Shown here: positions 10,956-60,535 of the stretch, in pieces | How the letters are laid out: every line of letters starts with the position of its first letter | How positions within the stretch are numbered: the stretch's first letter is position 1 | Assembly: GCA_951406725.2 (NCBI GenBank) | Contig: OX597817.1 | Coordinates: forward strand, 114,762,001 to 114,826,000 | DNA length: 64,000 nucleotides | Direction of reading: 5' to 3' | Source of the DNA: Octopus vulgaris | Taxonomy: Eukaryota | Program-made: the position numbers and the translations under genes | Notes under the pieces: model-generated | Seen by the model: only the letters and a program-made list of their open reading frames with translations | What the model was told of the DNA's origin: nothing | Databases searched by the model: none

Positions 10956-12225
10956 TGAGGGGCGTTCAATAAGTAATGCCCCTGACCCACTTCCCATAGC
11001 AGTAGAGCAACGACACTTGGCACAGTTATTAGTCTTTTCCTACATAGGAACTACCCAGAGTTATGCATTTCTCCCATCGCTTGATACAGCTCTGGAGACC
11101 GTTTTTGTAGAAGACCCCAGCTTGGTCCTCCAACCACGACGTGACTTCAGAAATCAAGGCTGCATCATCTGGGAAACGCTTTCCTTTCAAAATCAACTTC
11201 ATGGCTGGAAAGAGGTGAAAATCAGAGGGTGCAAGGGGAGGAGTTCATAGCTGCATGCCTGTGCTTCTGATCTGGCGACACGCGAGCTGTGGACTGGAGC
11301 GTTGTCCTGCAGGAGGAGGATGCCTTTGCTGATCTTGCCCTGCCTCTTGATTTTGATAGCTTCTCTTAATTTCCTCAAAAGTGAAGCATAATAGGCTCCT
11401 GTAATTGTGGTACCCTTTGCCAGGAAATCTGTCATCACTACTCCGCCCTGGTCCCAGAAGACTGTGAGCATAACCTTGTCAGCGGAGGGCTGCACCCTTG
11501 CCTTCTTTGGAGGAGGTGAGTCACGGTGCTTTCACTGCATTGACTGGGCTTTGGTCTATGGATCATAGTGATGGACCCAGGTTTTATCCTGTGTGATCAG
11601 TCTTTTGAAAAATTTTGACTCATCTTCTTGGCACATCTCCAAATTCATCCTCGAGCACTCAACGCGTTCTTGCTTCTGGAAAGGTGTGAGCAACCTGGAA
11701 ATCCATCTGGCAGACACCTTTTGCATATGCAAATGGTCATGAATGATAGTTTCCACAGACCCGGTACTAATCCTGACCTTATGGGCTATTTGGCGAATAG
11801 TTATGTGTTGACCTTCCAAAATGGCAGCCTCAACTTGACGGACAGATGTCTCATCAACGGCAGAAGGGGGCGACCAGATCTGGGAGCTGTTTCCACAGAG
11901 TTCTGACTATGTTTGAATTCACAATGCCAGCGTTTTACAAGGTCATATGATGGGGCATCATCACCATAAGTTACTTTCATTTCATGAAAAGTCTCCCGTG
12001 GTGTGCGTCCTTTCAAATACAAAAACCAGATCACTGCTCGACACTCAACAGGCTCCATTTCACACTTGACTCAGTTCAAACACCTGTAAATCAGAAACCA
12101 CAATTAGTTCAGAGCTGTAATTCGCCACTTCATCTATAGAGGTATAATTAAGTGCACATGCAAAATTTCAGCTAGATCAAACAACTGCAAGTGGGTCAGG
12201 GGCATTACTTATTGAACGCCCCTCG
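10956..12225 (-). mobile_element. Full-length decayed mariner DNA transposon (~1270 bp; probably irritans-like)
   Basis: The 37-bp TIRs (t/c)gaggggcgttcaataagtaatgcccctgacccactt lie at 10956-10992 and 12189-12225 with one mismatch. TA flanks both ends, the length is typical of mariner, and a transposase pseudogene lies inside. Confidence 0.96.
11029..12058 (-). pseudogene. Mariner DD34D-type transposase pseudogene
   Basis: Joined ORF pieces read MEPVECRAVIWFLYLKG..RSGRP (HTH), KVSARWISRLL (WVPRxL motif), LITQDKTWVHHYDP, KVMLTVFWD, LLLQDNAPVH, APSDFHLF..RWEKCI..YV. There are frameshifts and stops, and a deletion removes most of the YSPDL motif. Confidence 0.93.
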
Positions 12226-23708: not shown

Positions 23709-24281
23709 GAGAGAGAGAGACAGACAGACAGACAGCAAGATAGATATATCCATAGGTAGAGCTAGCTAGATAGATAGATAGATAGATAGATATGTAACTA
23801 GTTAGACATACACAACCCACATTGATAGGTAGAAAGATAGAGATAGATACAAAGCTACACAAATAGACAAATAGATAGATATACTGTATACAAATAAATA
23901 TTCATTGAGAGATAAAACACAAATAGATTTTTTTCCTCATGTAAGATGTTTCTTCGTATTTTATGTCCAAAATATTTCCCAACTTTTTTCTTTAATAGTT
24001 TTTCTATTGAAAGCTTAGACAGGTTGGAAGTTTCAGGCTGACATTCTGAGTAATTTCCCTTAGTGATTTATTTATTCTTTGACATATAGCCAGTTGTAAA
24101 GTTGATAGACTTCAACAAACAGCAAAATTTTTAAATCTGAAGAATTTTTCCTAAATGTAACTTCACATATTACACACACACACACACATATATATATCTA
24201 CCTACCTATATATGACCGCGTGTGCACCATTGGCGATTTTTTTTTTCTGTCTTCCCTTCTCTGGATCTTTCCCTCTCCTAT

Positions 24282-24316
24282 GTTTCCGACGAAGAGCTTC
24301 ACTCGAAACGTTAAAC
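24282..24316 (+). ncRNA. Minimal hammerhead-like motif (CCGA core variant)
   Basis: gttt-CCGACGAA-gag cttca ctc-GAAA-cg-TT-aaac. Confidence 0.55.
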
Positions 24317-24387
24317 CCTCCTTCTTTCCTTCTTTCCACGTCCTCACGTTGTTGTGTTTTTTTGTGCTTTCATGTTTGGATTAACTT

Positions 24388-24418
<31 letters not shown>

Positions 24419-24419
<1 letters not shown>

Positions 24420-24575
24420 TTATTTAAAAGCAGCAGAAATATAACAAAAGCTGTTACTCAGAGTTTCACATTTCCTGTTTGTCAGACAGTTTTTTTTTAA
24501 CAAAACTGTCTGACGAATGGGAACGTGAAACTCTGAGTAACAGCTTTTGTTATATTTCTGCTGCTTTTAAATAAA
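24419..24575. repeat. Inverted repeat hairpin (~75-bp arms) between (TA)n tracts
   Basis: tttatttaaaagcagcagaaatataacaaaagctgttactcagagtttcac... is mirrored at 24502-24575. Confidence 0.95.
24506..24543 (+). ncRNA. Minimal type I hammerhead ribozyme motif
   Basis: ctgt-CTGACGA-atg ggaa cgt-GAAA-ctc t gag-TA-acag. A decayed mirror copy lies on the minus strand in the left arm of the same hairpin. Confidence 0.75.
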
Positions 24576-24645
24576 ACATCTTACTCTACTTTTGGTATTT
24601 GAGTACTTTTTTTTCCACCTTGTTTCACATTTATGTGCTTATACT

Positions 24646-24714
<69 letters not shown>

Positions 24715-32389: not shown

Positions 32390-35265
32390 TTAAGAGGGAT
32401 TGAAATGTAGCAGTCATTGCTATAACAGATGATGGGTTGAAACACTTTAGAAGCAATATCAGTTAGTGACATTGAGAATCCTCAGTTTGACATTGTCTCA
32501 TTGATGAAGGATTTAGTTGAAGGTTTGTTACACTTCAGCAGGAAGCTTGCTATGCTATGAGGAAAGAGAGAGAAGTATTTGCGGAGGCAGTAGCAATTGA
32601 CCAGATATTACAACAAATTTTGAATGCTTTGAAGTGTGATCAACTTTCTTTCATCATCATCATCATTTAATGTCCAGCATGGGTTGGACTGTTCGACTGG
32701 GGTCTGTGAAGCCAGGAGACTGCACCAGGCTCCAGTCTGATCTGGCAGTGTTTCTACAGCTGGATGCCCTTCCTAACGCTAACCATCCGTGAGTGTAGTG
32801 GGTGCTTTTTACATGCCACCAGCACAGGTGCCAGGGGAGGCTGGCAATGGCCACGATGGGTTGGTGCTTAGAAACCAGTCAAGGCGGCGCTGTCTTCATC
32901 CCATGGTTAGCTATGCTTTGATATTTGGAGCTTGAAAAAAAAAGAAAAAAACTACCTATGTATATAATGCTTGCTACACTCTAGATATTTTTTATATTTT
33001 AAAATGTTTTCTTAGGCATATAAGTCTTGTTGTTGCTACTGCTGCTGTTGCAGTTGTTGTTGTTGTTTAACTTCAGGTCAAACCTGATAAAACATATATA
33101 TCAAGAAAGGTGTTTTGGCTATGACTATCCTATTGTTTTAGGAACATGAAGGACCTATATCATCTAATGTGTTGAATGAGGGAGTCTCTCTGTAGTCACT
33201 AGACTTGCTAGAAATAGTCACTAAATCTCTCTCAATAGTCAGTGAAAATCATGTTTTGAATAAGTCTTATTGTTGCTCATAAGATGGTTTCTGACTCTAT
33301 ATACAGGTGTCCATCACTTTTCTCACACTAAATCACTTCATTCAGGGAAATAGTGTTTTACTTTAATTCGGTTTAAATTTGGTGTGGTACCAATCTATCA
33401 AAGCAAAAGTTTTTCTTTGTATGTATTCCAGTATTCTTCTGTCTTTGAACAGTTACTTGAATCTTTTAAATATGTTTCTGACTGAAATACTTTATGCTGT
33501 CAGACCTCACAATTAAAATTACCATCCCCGTTTGTCAGCTGGAATTGGCAGTTCATTATAAGTCATTTCTTAATGGAAATTGTCTTCAAGCTGATCTCTG
33601 GTTCTCTTGAACTTTACCAGGGCTCAGTCACAATCACTTCTTTTCAATGTTTTGACCTTTGTGATTTTTATCTGTTTGAAAGATACTTACATGTATCTAT
33701 CTGAAGAATTTTCTTTATATGCTGGTGAATCACCTAGTGGTTCTACTATTTGTAATTTAAAAACCCCTCCAACTGTGATTCTCTTTCCAGTGATAGAATA
33801 TTTGACAAACATGGTAATATTTGAAATAGTATATACTATTGTTGTTTTAGTAATTCAGGTAAGCCTTGACTTAGAAAACCTACAGCAAGTGGATAGTCAA
33901 CTGAATGACTTGTTGCAATCCAAAGTTCTATAGCTCCAAATCAGCAGTTATGGTCTCCTGTAATAAATCATTATTGTTTGACTCTCATTCTATCTGAAAT
34001 TATACTTTTCTGTTTGTTTTTGTTTCTCCTCAATGTATTACACCAGTCATGGGTAAATTATGGCCCATCAGAACCTTCTGAATGGCTTGCCTAATGAAAA
34101 ATTATCTTGAATTTTTTTTTAGTAGTGTGGTTTGCTTGATAGTGAGCCATTTGTCACATAACCACCTCTCCAGAAAGATTGCCCATGCTTGTATTATACA
34201 AAGTATATTATTCATTCTTCTTTAAGATGGTAATATGAAGTTTGATGGGGATACTGTTATTTCTAACTACTTGAGTAACTGTACAGAAGCTACTTTGTAG
34301 ATTTGTGGTTGTTGCTATGACAATAGGTGTAAATGAGGTGGCCTCATACTTAGATTAACATTTTATAACCATTCTGTAAACTAGAATTTAAATTTCCATC
34401 AGGACTCAATTAATAGAAATAGGCTGGTAGATCTATCAGAAACTTTAAGGTTTTAGGTTTGATTCCAATCTGAGTTCAGACTGCAAGACTTTGACAGAAC
34501 TGATTTGAAGCTAATTATAAAAGAATCATATTGTTATGATTGTTTTGATTAAAATCCACAACTCAGTGAGCATATTTATATGTGTGCATTGTGTTGTGTT
34601 GTGTGTGTGTGTGTGTGTGTGTGTGCGCATGTGCCTCAATGCATAGCATTGTATATAATAATGAAAATGGACTAAAAAATATACAGCTATATTTGTGTGA
34701 AACTTGCATTTGATTCATAGGCTCATGAAAATAAGTATACAAATTTAGTGCTATGTTAACCACACTGCATCTTCATGATAAAAAAGTAATATGTAAATTT
34801 ATGACTCCCTGAAAACACATGCTAATATTATCTTAATGCTTTCAGGTTTACATGCATTTCTGTGCACACATGTATTTATGTTTTTTTCACCAGCAAACAA
34901 ATATGTGCTCATCGTATCATTTGTGTTTACACGGACCATTAAATATGAAAGAGAGCATTGGTTATTGACCAACAAAATATATTTTCTGAAAAATTGTGTT
35001 AATCAAATCTTTATAATATGCCCAATACAAATCCAGCAATGTTACCACTGTATGGGATTTAGCTGCAAAAGAAAAATTGATAAAAACTTTTTGAGTCAAC
35101 ACCAATCAATGTAAACGCAAGCAACCAACTATTATAATGTAATGTGGATAATTGGAAATGGGTTTTATGAGGTGTAGCTATGAGTTCAAGGTTTACTAGA
35201 CATAACAGAGAGTTGCTTCTTTCAGTCTTTTTTACCATTTCTATATAGAAATAGTAAAAGTAATA

Positions 35266-35967
35266 TTGATTTCAAATTTTGGCAAAAGACCAGCAATTTC
35301 AGTGAAGTGGGTAAATCAATTACATCGACCCCAGTGCTCAACTGGTACTTATCTTATCGACCCTGAAAGGATGAAAGGCAAAGTCGACCTTGGCAGAATT
35401 TGAACTCAGAACATAAAAACTGATGAAGCGCCACTAAGCATTTTGCCCAGCATGCTAATGATTCCGCCACTTCACTTTCACATTATATGTGAAAGTAATA
35501 GTGATTTCAAATTTTAGCACAAGGCCAGCAATTTTGGTGAAGCGGGTAAATCAATTGCATCAACCCCAGTGCTCAATTCGTACTTCTTTTATCGACTCCC
35601 AAAAGGATGAAAGGCAAAATCGATCTTGATGACATTTGAACTCAGAATGTAAAGACAAACGAAATGCTACCGAGCAGTTTGTCCAGCATGCTAATGATTC
35701 TGCCACTTCACTGCCTTTATATGTGAGAGTAATATCATTAGAATGTATAAAGGCAGTGAGCTGGTAGAATTGTTAGCATGCTTGGAAAAATGCTTAGCAG
35801 TATCTCATCCGTCTTTATGTTCCAAGTTCAAATTCCATCAAGGTTGACTTTACCTTTCATCCATTAGGAGTTGATAAAATAGGTTCCATTTGAGCATTGT
35901 GGTCAATGTAATTGACTTGGACCCTCCACCAAAATTGCTGATCCTGTGCTAAAATTTGAAACCAATA

Positions 35968-35968
<1 letters not shown>
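35266..35968. mobile_element. Cluster of three family B-related SINEs (-,-,+); further copies near 8460, 21655, 26360, 29470, 37500
   Basis: The core cgaccccagtgctcaactggtactta...aaggatgaaaggcaaagtcgacc...ttgaactcagaac is repeated at ~35266-35480 and ~35500-35718, and occurs as reverse complement at ~35751-35968. Confidence 0.85.
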
Positions 35969-36007
<39 letters not shown>

Positions 36008-40830: not shown

Positions 40831-40919
40831 TATTCAGATGTTCACCAACACATAAAGCAGTTTCTGAAAAGAAGTGACATAATAATCATGAAATTTAGCT
40901 TGAACACTCTGCATATATA

Positions 40920-41122
40920 TATAAAACCATTAACACAGAGAATGGAGAGAGCAACTCATTTTATTGCATAATTCTGCACTTGTTTCATCAACATGTTATC
41001 AGAAGTTTATTACTGGAATACATTCTAGCAATAAACATCTGGTAAAGCATCTATGAAACAGTTGTAGAATTATGCAACAAAATTAGTTGCTCTCTCTCCA
41101 TTCTCCTTGTTAATGTTTATAT
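40920..41122. repeat. Diverged inverted repeat hairpin (~100-bp arms)
   Basis: agaatggagagagcaact..ttgcataattct is mirrored by agaattatgcaa..agttgctctctctccattct. Confidence 0.9.
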
Positions 41123-41579
41123 AAACTTTACATATAGTTATGGATTTTCAGATATGTCATCTATGAAGTGAGCCATTTTCCCTGGTTGATAGTATCTGAT
41201 AGTTGATACTTGTGTGTAGGTTATGATCTAAATGGTATACATACATATATACATACATACATACAAGCAAACAAACAAAACAAACAATTCTCTCTTGCAT
41301 CAGTTTAATTCAAAGCAAAGGATGCGTCAGGTTAAATCATTGGGCTTGAAACCCATGAGATATCTTCAATTTCTTCTATCCCCCAATTTTTAAAAACCCA
41401 ATATTATATGCTGTTATATATGGCTTTATTTGCTTTGTATTAAACTGCTCCAAAGAAAGAATCGTTTCATGATCTCTCAAAGTTTATAAATTCTTATGAC
41501 ATTAACAACAACAACAATGTATATATACATGCACGCATATATATATGTACATACACATTTATATATATATATATATATA

Positions 41580-41990
41580 TCATCATCATCATCATCATCC
41601 TTTAATGATCATCCAAGCTGGCATGGGTTGGATGGTTTAACCAGGGTTGGTAAGCTGGAAGGCTGTGTCAGCCTCCAGTCTGATTTGGCATGGTTTTCTA
41701 TGGCTGGATGCTCTTCCTAATACCAGCTACTCTGAGAGTGTAATTGACGCTTTTATATGTCAGTGGCATATGTCACATGGTTTTTGCTAGATTAACTCTA
41801 AGACCCTTTGATTCTAGACCTTGCTTCCATACCTAGAATGTCTTCTTTAGTTCTGGTAGTGATTCAGTAATAAAAGCAAGCTCATCAGCATAGAAGAGCT
41901 CTCAGGGGCAGCCTGATTTAAATTCCAATGTTATTACCTGGAGGACTACAATGAACAAGATGAGGCTGAGCACCAATCCTTGGTGAACCC
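41580..41990 (-). mobile_element. RTE-clade LINE relic: reverse-transcriptase fragment abutting a 3' tail
   Basis: Minus strand 41775-41990 reads VHQGLVLSLILFIVVLQVIT..GCP*ELFYADELAFI..VWKQGLE, i.e. RT motifs QGxxLSP and YADD. A (gat)n tail lies at ~41580. Confidence 0.8.
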
Positions 41991-42131: not shown

Positions 42132-42317
42132 ATGCCAGACAATATTTTTTAATGTGTCTGATGTCCTGGCACAATCTTCAGACACTGCCTACATGACATA
42201 ACAAACTAAAAGTGGGACAATAAGATGAGAGAAAAAAAAACAGTTTGTTATGCCATGTGGGCAGTACCTGAAGGTCATGCTAGGACACCAGAAATATTAA
42301 AAAATACTGTCTGGCAT
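42132..42317. repeat. Diverged inverted repeat hairpin (~75-bp arms)
   Basis: atgccagacaatatttttta..acataacaaact is mirrored by agtttgttatgc..aaaaatactgtctggcat. Confidence 0.9.
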
Positions 42318-47521: not shown

Positions 47522-47569
<48 letters not shown>

Positions 47570-47759
47570 TTTAACAATTAAGGATAATCTCTTAATAAGG
47601 GATCTTAACAAGAAATTATCGGGTAGTTAGCGTGAAAACCTCATAAAAGAAAAGAATTCGAAAATAATTTTTTTCTTTTGAACAAATTAATTATATCTAT
47701 ATTGTATAGAGGGCATTATTACACAAGGTTGGTAGTTTATTTATGATGTGTTCAGAATC

Positions 47760-47817
47760 AGTTCTGCTGAGGATCATAAGACGTAAGTTGAATGTGAAAT
47801 CACGGTGATACAGAACT
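47760..47817 (+). ncRNA. Type I hammerhead ribozyme motif
   Basis: agttctg-CTGAGGA-t cat(..)atg t-GAAA-tcac g gtga-TA-cagaact: perfect 7-bp helix I, intact core and near-palindromic helix III. Confidence 0.75.
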
Positions 47818-47959
47818 AAATTCATTTTTTAAATGTCTTGCTTTGAAAAACTGCATTTAGGTATGATTAGTATAATTTTGATAGTAATGACTTTGTCCCT
47901 CTTAGTGTGAGGCATTTATGTGTAATAATGCCCTCTATACAATATATATATATATATAT

Positions 47960-48117
47960 ATATGCTGTAATTTAGAACAAACAGTAAAAGGTTGTCATTA
48001 TAGTACTTGGAGTTTTGATTGTCAGAGTAAAGAGCTATGATACATTCTCATAAATTAATGGCAACTCCGAGTACTATAATGACAATCTTTTATTGTTTGT
48101 TCTAAATTATAACATAT
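47960..48117. repeat. Inverted repeat hairpin (~54-bp arms) next to (TA)n
   Basis: taatttagaacaaacagtaaaaggttgtcattatagtact is mirrored by agtactataatgacaatcttttattgtttgttctaaatta. Confidence 0.9.
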
Positions 48118-48289
48118 ATAAATGATCCTCTATTTCTCTAATATCGAGGTCTCATTCTTTTGTTGTTACTTTTTATTAGTATTATTATTGTTATTATTAT
48201 TATCATTATTATTACAATATATATATGAAAGTGCATATGTATGGTTGTTTATCGACAGACACACATTACATGAATATATATATATATAT

Positions 48290-49100
48290 CATCATCACCA
48301 TCATCATCATCGTTTAACGTCCGCTTTCCATGCTAGCATGGGTTGGACGGTTCAACTGGGGTCTGGCGAGCCCGAAGGCTGCACCAGGCCAGTCAGATCT
48401 GGCAGTGTTTCTACAGCTGGATGCCCTTCCTAATGCCAACCACTCCGAGAGTGTAGTGGGTGATTTTATGTGCCACCGACACAGGTGCCAGACGAGGCTG
48501 GCGAACGGCCACACTCGGATGGTGTTTTTTATGTGCCACCGACACAGGTGCCAGACGAGGCTGGCAGACGGCCACGCACGGATGGTGTTTTTTATGTGCC
48601 ACCGACACAGGTGCCAGATGAGGCTGGCAGACGGCCACGCTTGGATGGTGTTTTTTATGTGCCACCGACATAGGTGCCAGACGAGGCTGGCAGACGGCCA
48701 TGCTCGGATGGTGTTTTTTATGTGCCACCGACACAGGTGCCAGACGAGGCTGGCGAACGGCCACAATCAGGTGGTGTTTGTTACGTGCCCACAGCACGGA
48801 GGCCAGTCGATGCGGTACTGGCTATGGCCACGTTCGGATGGTTTTCTTATGTGCCACCGCCACTGGTACCACAAAGATACAAATTCCATTGATGTTCATC
48901 TATTTTGATTTGGTTTGATTTGATTTGATTTTCACTTGCCTCAACAGGTCTTCACAAGTGTCACAAGAAGGAAGGTATGCACAGGTGGAGTGACTACGTC
49001 CCATGTAGGGGCCACGGGTTATGGCTTCACTAGTCTTGCCAGGTCTTCTCACGCACAGCATACTTCCATAGGTCTCGGTCTCTAGTCATTTCCATGGTGA

Positions 49101-56579: not shown

Positions 56580-56745
56580 TGATAATAAGGAGAAGGAAAA
56601 ATTTGAACCATCAAATTTTATGTTTATGTGCAGTTGGTTTATTCATATGAATTGTCCAACACATGTTAGACAATTGATATGAATAAACCAACTGTAAATA
56701 AATATAAAGTTTGAATGTTCAAATTCTTCATCCTCCTTATTATCA
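56580..56745. repeat. Inverted repeat hairpin (~80-bp arms) next to (TA)n
   Basis: tgataataaggag..cagttggtttattcatat is mirrored by atatgaataaaccaactg..ctccttattatca. Confidence 0.9.
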
Positions 56746-57863: not shown

Positions 57864-58196
57864 TGTGGCCGTTCGCCAGCCTCATCTGGCACCTGTGTCG
57901 GTGGCACATAAAAACACCATCCGAGCGTGGCCGTCTGCCAGCCTTGTCTGGCACCTGTGTCGGTGGCACATAAAAAATACCATCCGAGTGTGGCCGTTCG
58001 CCAGCCTCGTCTGGCACCTGTGTCGGTGGCACATAAAATCACCCACTACACTCTCGGAGTGGTTGGCGTTAGGAAGGGCATCCAGCTGTAGAAACACTGC
58101 CAGATCTGACTGGCCTGGTGCAGCCTTCGGGCTCCCCAGACCCCAGTTGAACCGTCCAACCCATGCTAGCATGGAAAACGGACGCTAAATGAATGA

Positions 58197-59189: not shown

Positions 59190-60535
59190 ATATACATACA
59201 TACATACATGCACACATACCTACATACATATCGTGGTCTTTCCTCATGTTTCTTGAAATTTATATCCACATCTTTATGAGTATATTTACCTTCTTGGGAT
59301 GTCAATAATTAATTTAAGAACTTTGTATTGTTGGAAAACATATATGGTCTGCTTGGAATCTTACTTCATTTTCCTGGAACTCACATCTATAACTTTATAA
59401 GTATATTTACACTCTCTAAGATGTTTGGAAAACCTATATGAAATTTAGCTGAAGATTACTTGACATTATATTTGCTGTAATATTTGCAGCTTTAATAAAA
59501 TGTTTATATTATGAAACAATTGTACTAAACTACCGATCCATTCTTGTTGCTTATTTTTTGGTTACATACATACATACATATAAATAAAGCATAATAAGGA
59601 AAGGGAAAAAATAGATGTGTAGATGTTACTTTATTCCAAGTTAGTCCATATATCCAATAAAAACTCTACAAATTGTTTCCAAGCAAAAGAAAACGAAATA
59701 AATCCTTTTGAAATCAAAAATTAGGCTTTTCCTTAGGAATTCATTATTGGAATGAATGGGCTGTTGTAAAGGTCTTTATATTTTTGTTGGTATAACACAT
59801 TCATTCCAATAATGAATTCCTTAGGAAAAGCCTAATTTGTGATTTCAAAAGGTTTTACTTCATTTTGTTTTGAATTAAGTAGGCTTTGAAACAACTTGTA
59901 GAGATTTTATTTGATATATGTACCAGAATAAAGTAGCATCTACACTTCTGTTTTTTTTTTTTTCTTTATTATAATTTATTCATTTATTGTACCAATATTG
60001 AATATATAGATTTTTATGTATTCTTTGCTTTGAATTGAACTGGCAGACTTGAATGTTTAACATTCCTTTGAATGATTTAGGTCTTTTATATATATATGTG
60101 TGAGTGTGTGTGTTTGTATAATTCTTGATATATGTATAATTCTTGATATATGTCTTTGATGTATGTAACCAAAAAATAAGCAACAAGAATGGATCGGTAG
60201 TTTACTACAATTGTTTCATACTATAAACATTTTATTAAAGCTGCAAATATTACAGCAAATATAATGTCAAGTAATCTTCAGCTAAATTTCATATAGGTTT
60301 TCCAAACATCTTAGAGAGTGTAAATATACTTATAAAGTTATAGATGTGAGTTCCAGGAAAATGAAGTAAGATTCCAAGCAGACCATATATGTTTTCCAAC
60401 AATACAAAGTTCTTAAATTAATTATTGACATCCCAGAGAAGGTAAATATACTCATAAAGATGTGGATATAAATTTCAAGAAACATGAGGAAAGATGCCGA
60501 TCAGACCATGATATGTAGGTATGTGTGCATGTATG

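Follow-up and report, generated by a model that had tools for sequence, protein, structure and literature searches.

MITEs of TA-targeting DNA transposons are short and have inverted ends and TA flanks. Insertions of Penelope-like elements (PLEs) are described as severely truncated at the 5' end and, in many cases, as adjoined by an inverted copy with the same kind of truncation and by an optional tail of 30 to 40 bp at one end (Craig et al. 2021, PMC8557442), and head to head is given as the commonest inverted arrangement (Arkhipova et al. 2013, PMC3846280). In vitro, PLE protein was reported to nick AT-rich DNA, with reverse transcription from two internal sites whose spacing equals the tail length; hammerhead cleavage depended on the PLE protein and was dispensable for insertion (Frangieh et al., PMC11167929). 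A palindromic stem III, action as a dimer, and low activity have been described for such hammerheads (Cervera and De la Pena, PMC4209133; review, PMC6765202), and the G10.1-C11.1 pair is reported to be highly conserved in those of metazoan PLEs (PMC4209133). At that stem II position, U·U is a natural variant and the best tolerated mismatch (Perreault et al., PMC3088659). The Hydra clade of PLEs is defined by RWK and DKT motifs, a CxCX5C linker, no CCHH, and RT phylogeny, and a (TA)n target is given for 26 of its 27 families in File S1 of PMC8557442. The same paper reports a (TA)n preference in Naiads, so that this target is not exclusive to Hydra, and notes an inverted 5' copy for Penelope-13_HM.

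The segment from 47568 to 47946 of the window (the whole 64,000-nucleotide stretch of Octopus vulgaris DNA that we analysed) consists of two 5'-truncated pieces of one repeat family joined head to head at 47725/47726 (Table 1). We regard it as likely that this hammerhead-bearing repeat is a dead, 5'-truncated PLE insertion, probably of the Hydra clade; the RNA motif, the anatomy, and the target are what make membership in both groups likely. Like the EN+ PLE insertion units described in PMC3846280 and PMC8557442, the locus has an adjacent inverted 5'-truncated copy, a head-to-head junction, a tail at one end only, a hammerhead in the 3' repeat, and an AT-rich target. Unlike them, it has no ORF in view and no visible target-site duplication, which would be indistinguishable from the flanking TA tracts, and its tail of approximately 125 to 130 bp is three to four times as long as the published PLE tail. 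The only unusual points are this long tail and a possible short unit of about 480 nt. The locus is likely ordinary in kind, following the known PLE insertion pattern rather than representing a new hybrid DNA transposon; it makes no case for a new class of element, and its ribozyme is a predicted motif.

Table 1. Coordinates of the head-to-head unit and its flanking tracts within the window.
Feature	Positions	Strand	Basis
(TA)21 tract, left side of likely target	47526..47567		sequence
Inverted arm, 158 bp; 3' end of the family, truncated on its 5' side and facing leftward into TA	47568..47725	-	contig depth and order
One-sided "tail," ~125-130 bp; on the inverted arm only, right arm without it	47568..47697	-	contig loose ends
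Left copy of the 28-bp overlap (apparent TIR)	47698..47725	-	inverted-repeat comparison
Sense arm, 221 bp; pLTR-like, 5'-truncated, with the short terminus (no tail)	47726..47946	+	contigs diverging at 47725
Type I hammerhead motif; U10.1·U11.1, 5-bp palindromic stem III, predicted cut after 47810	47760..47817	+	descriptor scan, File S2 of PMC8557442
Right copy of the 28-bp overlap	47919..47946	+	inverted-repeat comparison
(TA)11 tract, right side of likely target	47942..47963		sequence

The original prediction was of a 250-bp unit bounded by a perfect 28-bp inverted repeat beside (TA)n. The repeat was confirmed: it is exact over 28 bp (47698-47725 versus 47919-47946), and the longest inverted repeat found in base shuffles of 47568-47946 was 13 bp, with 28 bp reached in 0 of 1,000. 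When one mismatch was allowed, it extended to 34 bp (47692-47725 and 47919-47952), and the outer 5 bp of the right repeat (47942-47946) are part of the TA tract at 47942-47963. Searches with blastn and nhmmer found no further copy of either arm within the 64-kb window. The sequence from 47568 to 48165 was then compared with public runs, and of the 24 rows listed, 20 contained a portion of it; they came from 8 studies and carried four organism labels. Contigs of four of these runs (X1, X3, X5, and X17) were aligned at 80% likeness, which yielded 2326, 1518, 19, and 477 records, respectively. Summed depth over most bins of 47568-47927 was 3 to 8 × 10^5 in X1 and 2 to 6 × 10^5 in X3, with single contigs at 27 to 56; summed depth does not equal copy number, and "thousands" of copies is to be read as an order of magnitude. 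Depth showed no step at 47697/47698, the left border of the apparent TIR, and therefore the 130 bp to the left of the 250-bp unit belong to the same family. The proposed 250-bp limits thus did not hold, since the family runs on leftward to 47568. The full unit, from TA tract to TA tract, is 379 bp (47568-47946), and this segment is one very abundant, high-copy repeat family. Three X1 bins (47768-47827) were shallower than the rest, a dip over the hammerhead that was absent in X3.

The arrangement of the family was read from contigs of other copies, with 47568-47697 named A, 47698-47725 named T, and 47726-47918 named C. The window copy reads A, T, C, and reversed T; elsewhere in the family, it is reversed C that comes after T. 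In X1, 22 records continued past 47725, and the first 16 of 30 letters matched the reverse complement of 47918 downward. Taken alone, these 22 loose ends might be ends of the right arm misplaced on the left arm, the right end having been skipped as a repeat, a weakness from which X5 record 25, X17 record 10, and three other joints are free. X5 record 25 (503 nt, depth 12) ran from 47929 to 47725 on the minus strand, continued through 128 other letters, and then covered 47568-47725 on the plus strand, with 204 of 205 and 158 of 158 letters, respectively, identical to the window. The 28-bp segment T is in direct orientation in this one contig, in which the 128 letters between the mapped pieces are unseen. 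X17 record 10 (depth 318) also diverged from the window at 47725. Run X5 is only guessed to be RNA, and we used it for sequence order rather than as evidence of transcription. With the hammerhead strand taken as sense, the order of the family is C, T', A', and two 3' termini adjoin TA. The terminus after T' was seen as a TA run before 47692 in 29 X1 records, and the terminus after A' was seen in the window copy and in one X5 record each with TA-rich sequence before 47570 and before 47602. Two X17 records carried other AT-rich letters before 47570. Within the tail, a 6-bp motif is repeated 13 bp apart at 47585-47608, and the loose ends of X5, X1, and X3 before 47602-47604 differ, suggesting subfamilies with and without a short duplication there.

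Since X5 record 25 starts and ends in the same direct 28-bp segment with 128 unseen letters between, it would fit a head-to-tail unit of 480 nt, as expected if the family were a non-LTR retrozyme. The hammerhead would then cleave a non-coding tandem unit of about 480 nt, which would be circularised and multiplied through rolling-circle steps, and the window copy would be an aberrant inverted by-product. Metazoan retrozymes are described as AT-rich tandem units with type I hammerheads, 350 to 390 bp long in a mussel (Cervera and De la Pena 2020, PMC7229834), and unit lengths of 51 to 972 bp overall have been reported (Li et al. 2026, 10.64898/2026.07.22.740005). The family shares with the elements of both papers a non-coding, AT-rich character and a type I hammerhead, as well as the direct-repeat unit hinted at by that one contig, and the family sequence in view, 351 nt, has stop codons in every frame. 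However, record 25 is one contig of depth 12 from one run, and a TA run and another insertion may lie among its unseen letters, given that the second aligned stretch begins at 47568. At this locus the family is represented by one inverted unit bearing one hammerhead, not by two or more in succession, and copies of the family terminate in TA at two fixed positions, both lying away from the cut site, with the inverted, 5'-truncated junctions of integration by a PLE protein. Retrozymes have themselves been proposed to be non-autonomous PLE derivatives (10.64898/2026.07.22.740005), so that this alternative differs mainly in the source RNA; as an account of this locus we judge it improbable.

The junction itself fits the PLE reading. 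At 47725/47726 the two truncated 5' ends join with 1 nt shared, the 3' ends face outward into the TA tracts, and the 28-bp "TIR" is present because both arms copied that segment. The original prediction offered a PLE pseudo-LTR with a short inverted 5' remnant; the remnant is inverted as proposed, but it is 158 bp (47568-47725) rather than 28 bp. Among the 13 joints listed, 8 belonged to the neighbouring fold-back repeat, 2 joined opposite strands in the usual order, and 3 had the polarity of the window copy. Those three were 47689 to 47860 with 8 filler letters, 47702 to 47852, and 47725 to 47907 with 7 letters extending the inverted arm, the last found in both X1 and X3; the implied overlaps were 0, 5, and 35 bp, on the assumption that each right arm ends at 47946. 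In each run a joint was represented by one contig, whose shorter side had 21 to 28 letters. None of the three right arms reached the hammerhead, and all started downstream of it. A constant TIR length across copies had been named as the sign of a discrete element, and the length is instead variable, at 28 bp here versus 0, 5, and 35 bp elsewhere. The variable overlap and the head-to-head truncated arms support the pseudo-LTR proposal, and the other proposal, of a hybrid TIR-bounded ribozyme element, finds no support in a family that extends past the "TIR," an overlap that varies, and a segment that is in direct orientation elsewhere.

These joints also bear on two further explanations. A discrete 250-bp MITE with 28-bp TIRs and a captured hammerhead, moved by a TA-targeting DNA transposase, would account for the perfect TIR, the TA flanks, the size, and the Mariner transposase remnant present in the window at 11202-12070. 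Yet the family sequence runs 130 bp beyond the left "TIR" without a drop in depth, and elsewhere the 28-bp segment is found either in direct orientation or with an overlap of another length and without an intervening hammerhead; the inverted repeat is neither terminal nor constant nor a feature of the family, as it is in MITEs. Our literature search, judged by title or the start of the abstract, found no hammerhead-bearing TIR element, and we consider this explanation extremely unlikely. Alternatively, the family might have inserted twice, independently, into one TA tract, and the two copies might later have been fused by a deletion, an inversion, or an assembly join. TA tracts have been hit repeatedly in this region, where another fold-back repeat begins at approximately 47960, and no contig among the pieces listed bridges the window junction at 47725/47726 (a further 4373 pieces and 350 loose ends lie beyond that list). 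This history is nonetheless highly unlikely, as the three joints of the same polarity occur in other contigs, a second hammerhead family at 24419-24647 is likewise head to head with a one-sided tail, no TA remnant is present at the junction, and both pieces match one contig (158 of 158 and 204 of 205 letters) and hence one subfamily.

The hammerhead motif was examined next to its published counterparts. Stem I has 7 bp (47760-47766 with 47811-47817) and is followed by the core at 47767-47773; stem II opens with U·U (47774 and 47795), continues with 3 bp, and is followed by GAA at 47796-47798; and stem III is a 5-bp palindrome with a 1-nt loop (47799-47809) leading to the cleavage triplet ATA at 47808-47810. 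When both strands of the window were scanned with a descriptor, 2 motifs were found, and only the one at 47760-47817 combined a stem I of 7 bp with a stem III of 5 bp. Stem I of at least 7 bp with stem III of at least 4 bp occurred in 0 of 40 dinucleotide-shuffled windows, and a looser motif occurred in 4 of 40. The predicted hammerhead thus withstood comparison with chance, no shuffled window equalling its quality, and its ATA lies where it had been placed. Rfam gave 0 matches anywhere in the window at the gathering threshold and recognised no hammerhead at 47760-47817 even at E ≤ 10. The matches at E ≤ 10 were all subthreshold and were led by hairpin-type miRNA models; none was a hammerhead, and they were rejected. 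Among the variants listed from the contigs, the common ones within the motif fell at N7 (47771) and in outer stem II and its loop (47778, 47784, and 47791), and core positions other than N7 were unaffected; variation among these listed variants avoids the hammerhead core.

Folding models for a single copy and for two copies gave different results. In the 58-nt monomer, the hammerhead fold had a free energy of -3.5 kcal/mol versus a minimum of -11.7 (z, -1.40), with a pairing probability of about 0.02 for stem III, and in the transcript from 47698 to 47946 the pairing of stem I was about 0.01. A single window copy is therefore predicted not to adopt the hammerhead fold. The cofold of two copies reached -32.9 kcal/mol versus -11.7 for each, with intermolecular stems I and III at 0.90 to 1.00; dimer stability of this kind is expected of any such palindrome, and the cofold was computed without a control. 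Stem II in the catalytic register had a pairing probability of only 0.13 to 0.15 in both the monomer and the dimer models. Cleavage is predicted to require a dimer, and because the monomer fold is disfavoured and the dimer favoured, a failure of the monomer to cleave would not refute a ribozyme in the family. A type I hammerhead with a palindromic stem III matches the features given in PMC4209133 and PMC6765202.

The U·U that closes stem II, the odd palindromic stem III, and the TA target together point to the Hydra clade, to which the family, if it is a PLE, fairly probably belongs. By our own count in File S2 of PMC8557442, stem II begins with U·U in 14 of the 25 Hydra-clade families (two of these 14 rows are identical) and in 0 of 6 Chlamys/PLE-X families, and loop III has 1 nt in 16 of the 25 Hydra-clade families. 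The comparison was made by eye, with U·U read as a T after the first core and a T before GAA, and as that file contains no Penelope/Poseidon, Neptune, or Nematis motifs, U·U may not be exclusive to Hydra. The window family thus shares with the Hydra clade of PMC8557442 the (TA)n target, a hammerhead near the 3' end, the U·U form, and the odd palindromic stem III with its 1-nt loop, and differs from the 25 families listed there in having a stem III of 5 bp, versus 4 bp or less, and a loop II of 14 nt, versus 3 to 10 nt. Hydra-1_Obim of the same paper differs from the window family in both sequence and hammerhead, and four motifs of the window family had 0 matches in the PLE consensus files that accompany it. 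Loose ends of related copies carried a G after the first core (1 record, in X3) or a C before GAAA (4 to 5 records each in X1, X3, and X17 and 1 in X5). This suggests sister subfamilies with the canonical G-C pair, a pairing that joins bases from separate contigs.

If the PLE reading is correct, published PLE biochemistry would allow the following course of insertion. An RT/GIY-YIG protein made elsewhere would nick a (TA)n tract, and reverse transcription would begin at two internal sites of the template RNA approximately 125 to 130 nt apart, so that only one of the two arms would receive the tail. Both cDNAs would end early and be joined head to head at 47725/47726 through the 1 nt that they have in common. 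In the source RNA, the hammerhead would act as a dimer by means of its palindromic stem III. A more specific version is that the source is a non-coding mini-PLE or retrozyme of about 480 nt, present in thousands of copies and served in trans by a Hydra-clade protein, with two fixed reverse transcription starts about 125 to 130 nt apart. The shorter would lie on an internal TA-like motif whose pairing with the nicked (TA)n assists priming, unlike the non-homologous initiation reported for the anole Poseidon element; we put this forward tentatively and regard it as rather doubtful.

No coding partner was found in the window, as 0 of 149 ORFs matched an RT or GIY-YIG Pfam family; of the 299 unmasked stop-to-stop frames of at least 45 amino acids, the 148 longest were included, together with one further frame. 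The matches above the Pfam cut-off were exclusively pieces of Mariner, from a broken transposase on the minus strand at 11202-12070 with HTH_48 and Transposase_1 in different frames. Pattern scans for a related locus gave 0 and 0 matches in metagenome contigs and 0 in prokaryote genomes. Among viral contigs, the sole pattern match lacked stem I and was attributed to chance. Literature searches with five motifs, or judged by title or the start of the abstract, did not retrieve the window family, which may be contained in Repbase, Dfam, or the TE library of PMC13282606. Recently active Penelope-like families are listed in PMC13282606, from which the word "ribozyme" is absent.

Annotation based on TIRs takes PLE stubs of this form for MITEs, and some of the sequence classed as "MITE" or "unclassified TIR" in TA-rich animal genomes may therefore be retroelement debris; the present window contains at least two such units. 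The thousands of copies and several junctions would allow both cDNA ends of a probable Hydra-clade PLE to be mapped, and the mechanism in that clade is not addressed in those parts of the PLE literature that we consulted.

The second unit, at 24419-24647, is a hammerhead fold-back of another family, whose arms of approximately 79 bp meet head to head and agree at 71 of 78 aligned columns; only the right arm has a tail, of approximately 72 bp, and TA tracts flank the unit at 24393-24417 and 24648-24709. On visual comparison, its hammerhead motif, at approximately 24506-24543, very closely resembles those given for Hydra-2_aMil and Hydra-2_aJap in File S2 of PMC8557442. The arms meet a few bases upstream of stem I, and the hammerhead structure has a free energy of -0.3 kcal/mol. 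A possible third hammerhead-like core, also recognised by eye, is present at 24262-24320, with C rather than T as its second base, a short stem II, and GAAAC, and a TA tract lies approximately 70 bp beyond it. The neighbouring fold-back repeat at 47954-48165 has 61-bp arms that are 90% complementary and has its TA tract in common with the right side of the head-to-head unit. The contigs show it to be a multicopy family that is joined to the opposite strand in several different ways and is extended on one side, at 48124-48165, by sequence of higher abundance; it may be another inverted retroelement stub. Further fold-backs were found at 35497-35969, 40918-41123, 42132-42317, 56580-56745, and 59237-60494, several of them beside TA or TA-like runs; in the last, 59237-59562 and 60168-60494 are 99% complementary over 327 bp and enclose an older fold-back. 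A dispersed repeat at 48313-48876 starts in a (CAT)n run and contains an internal tandem array of 63 bp, and other copies of it lie near 32676, near 41612, and at 58039-58189.
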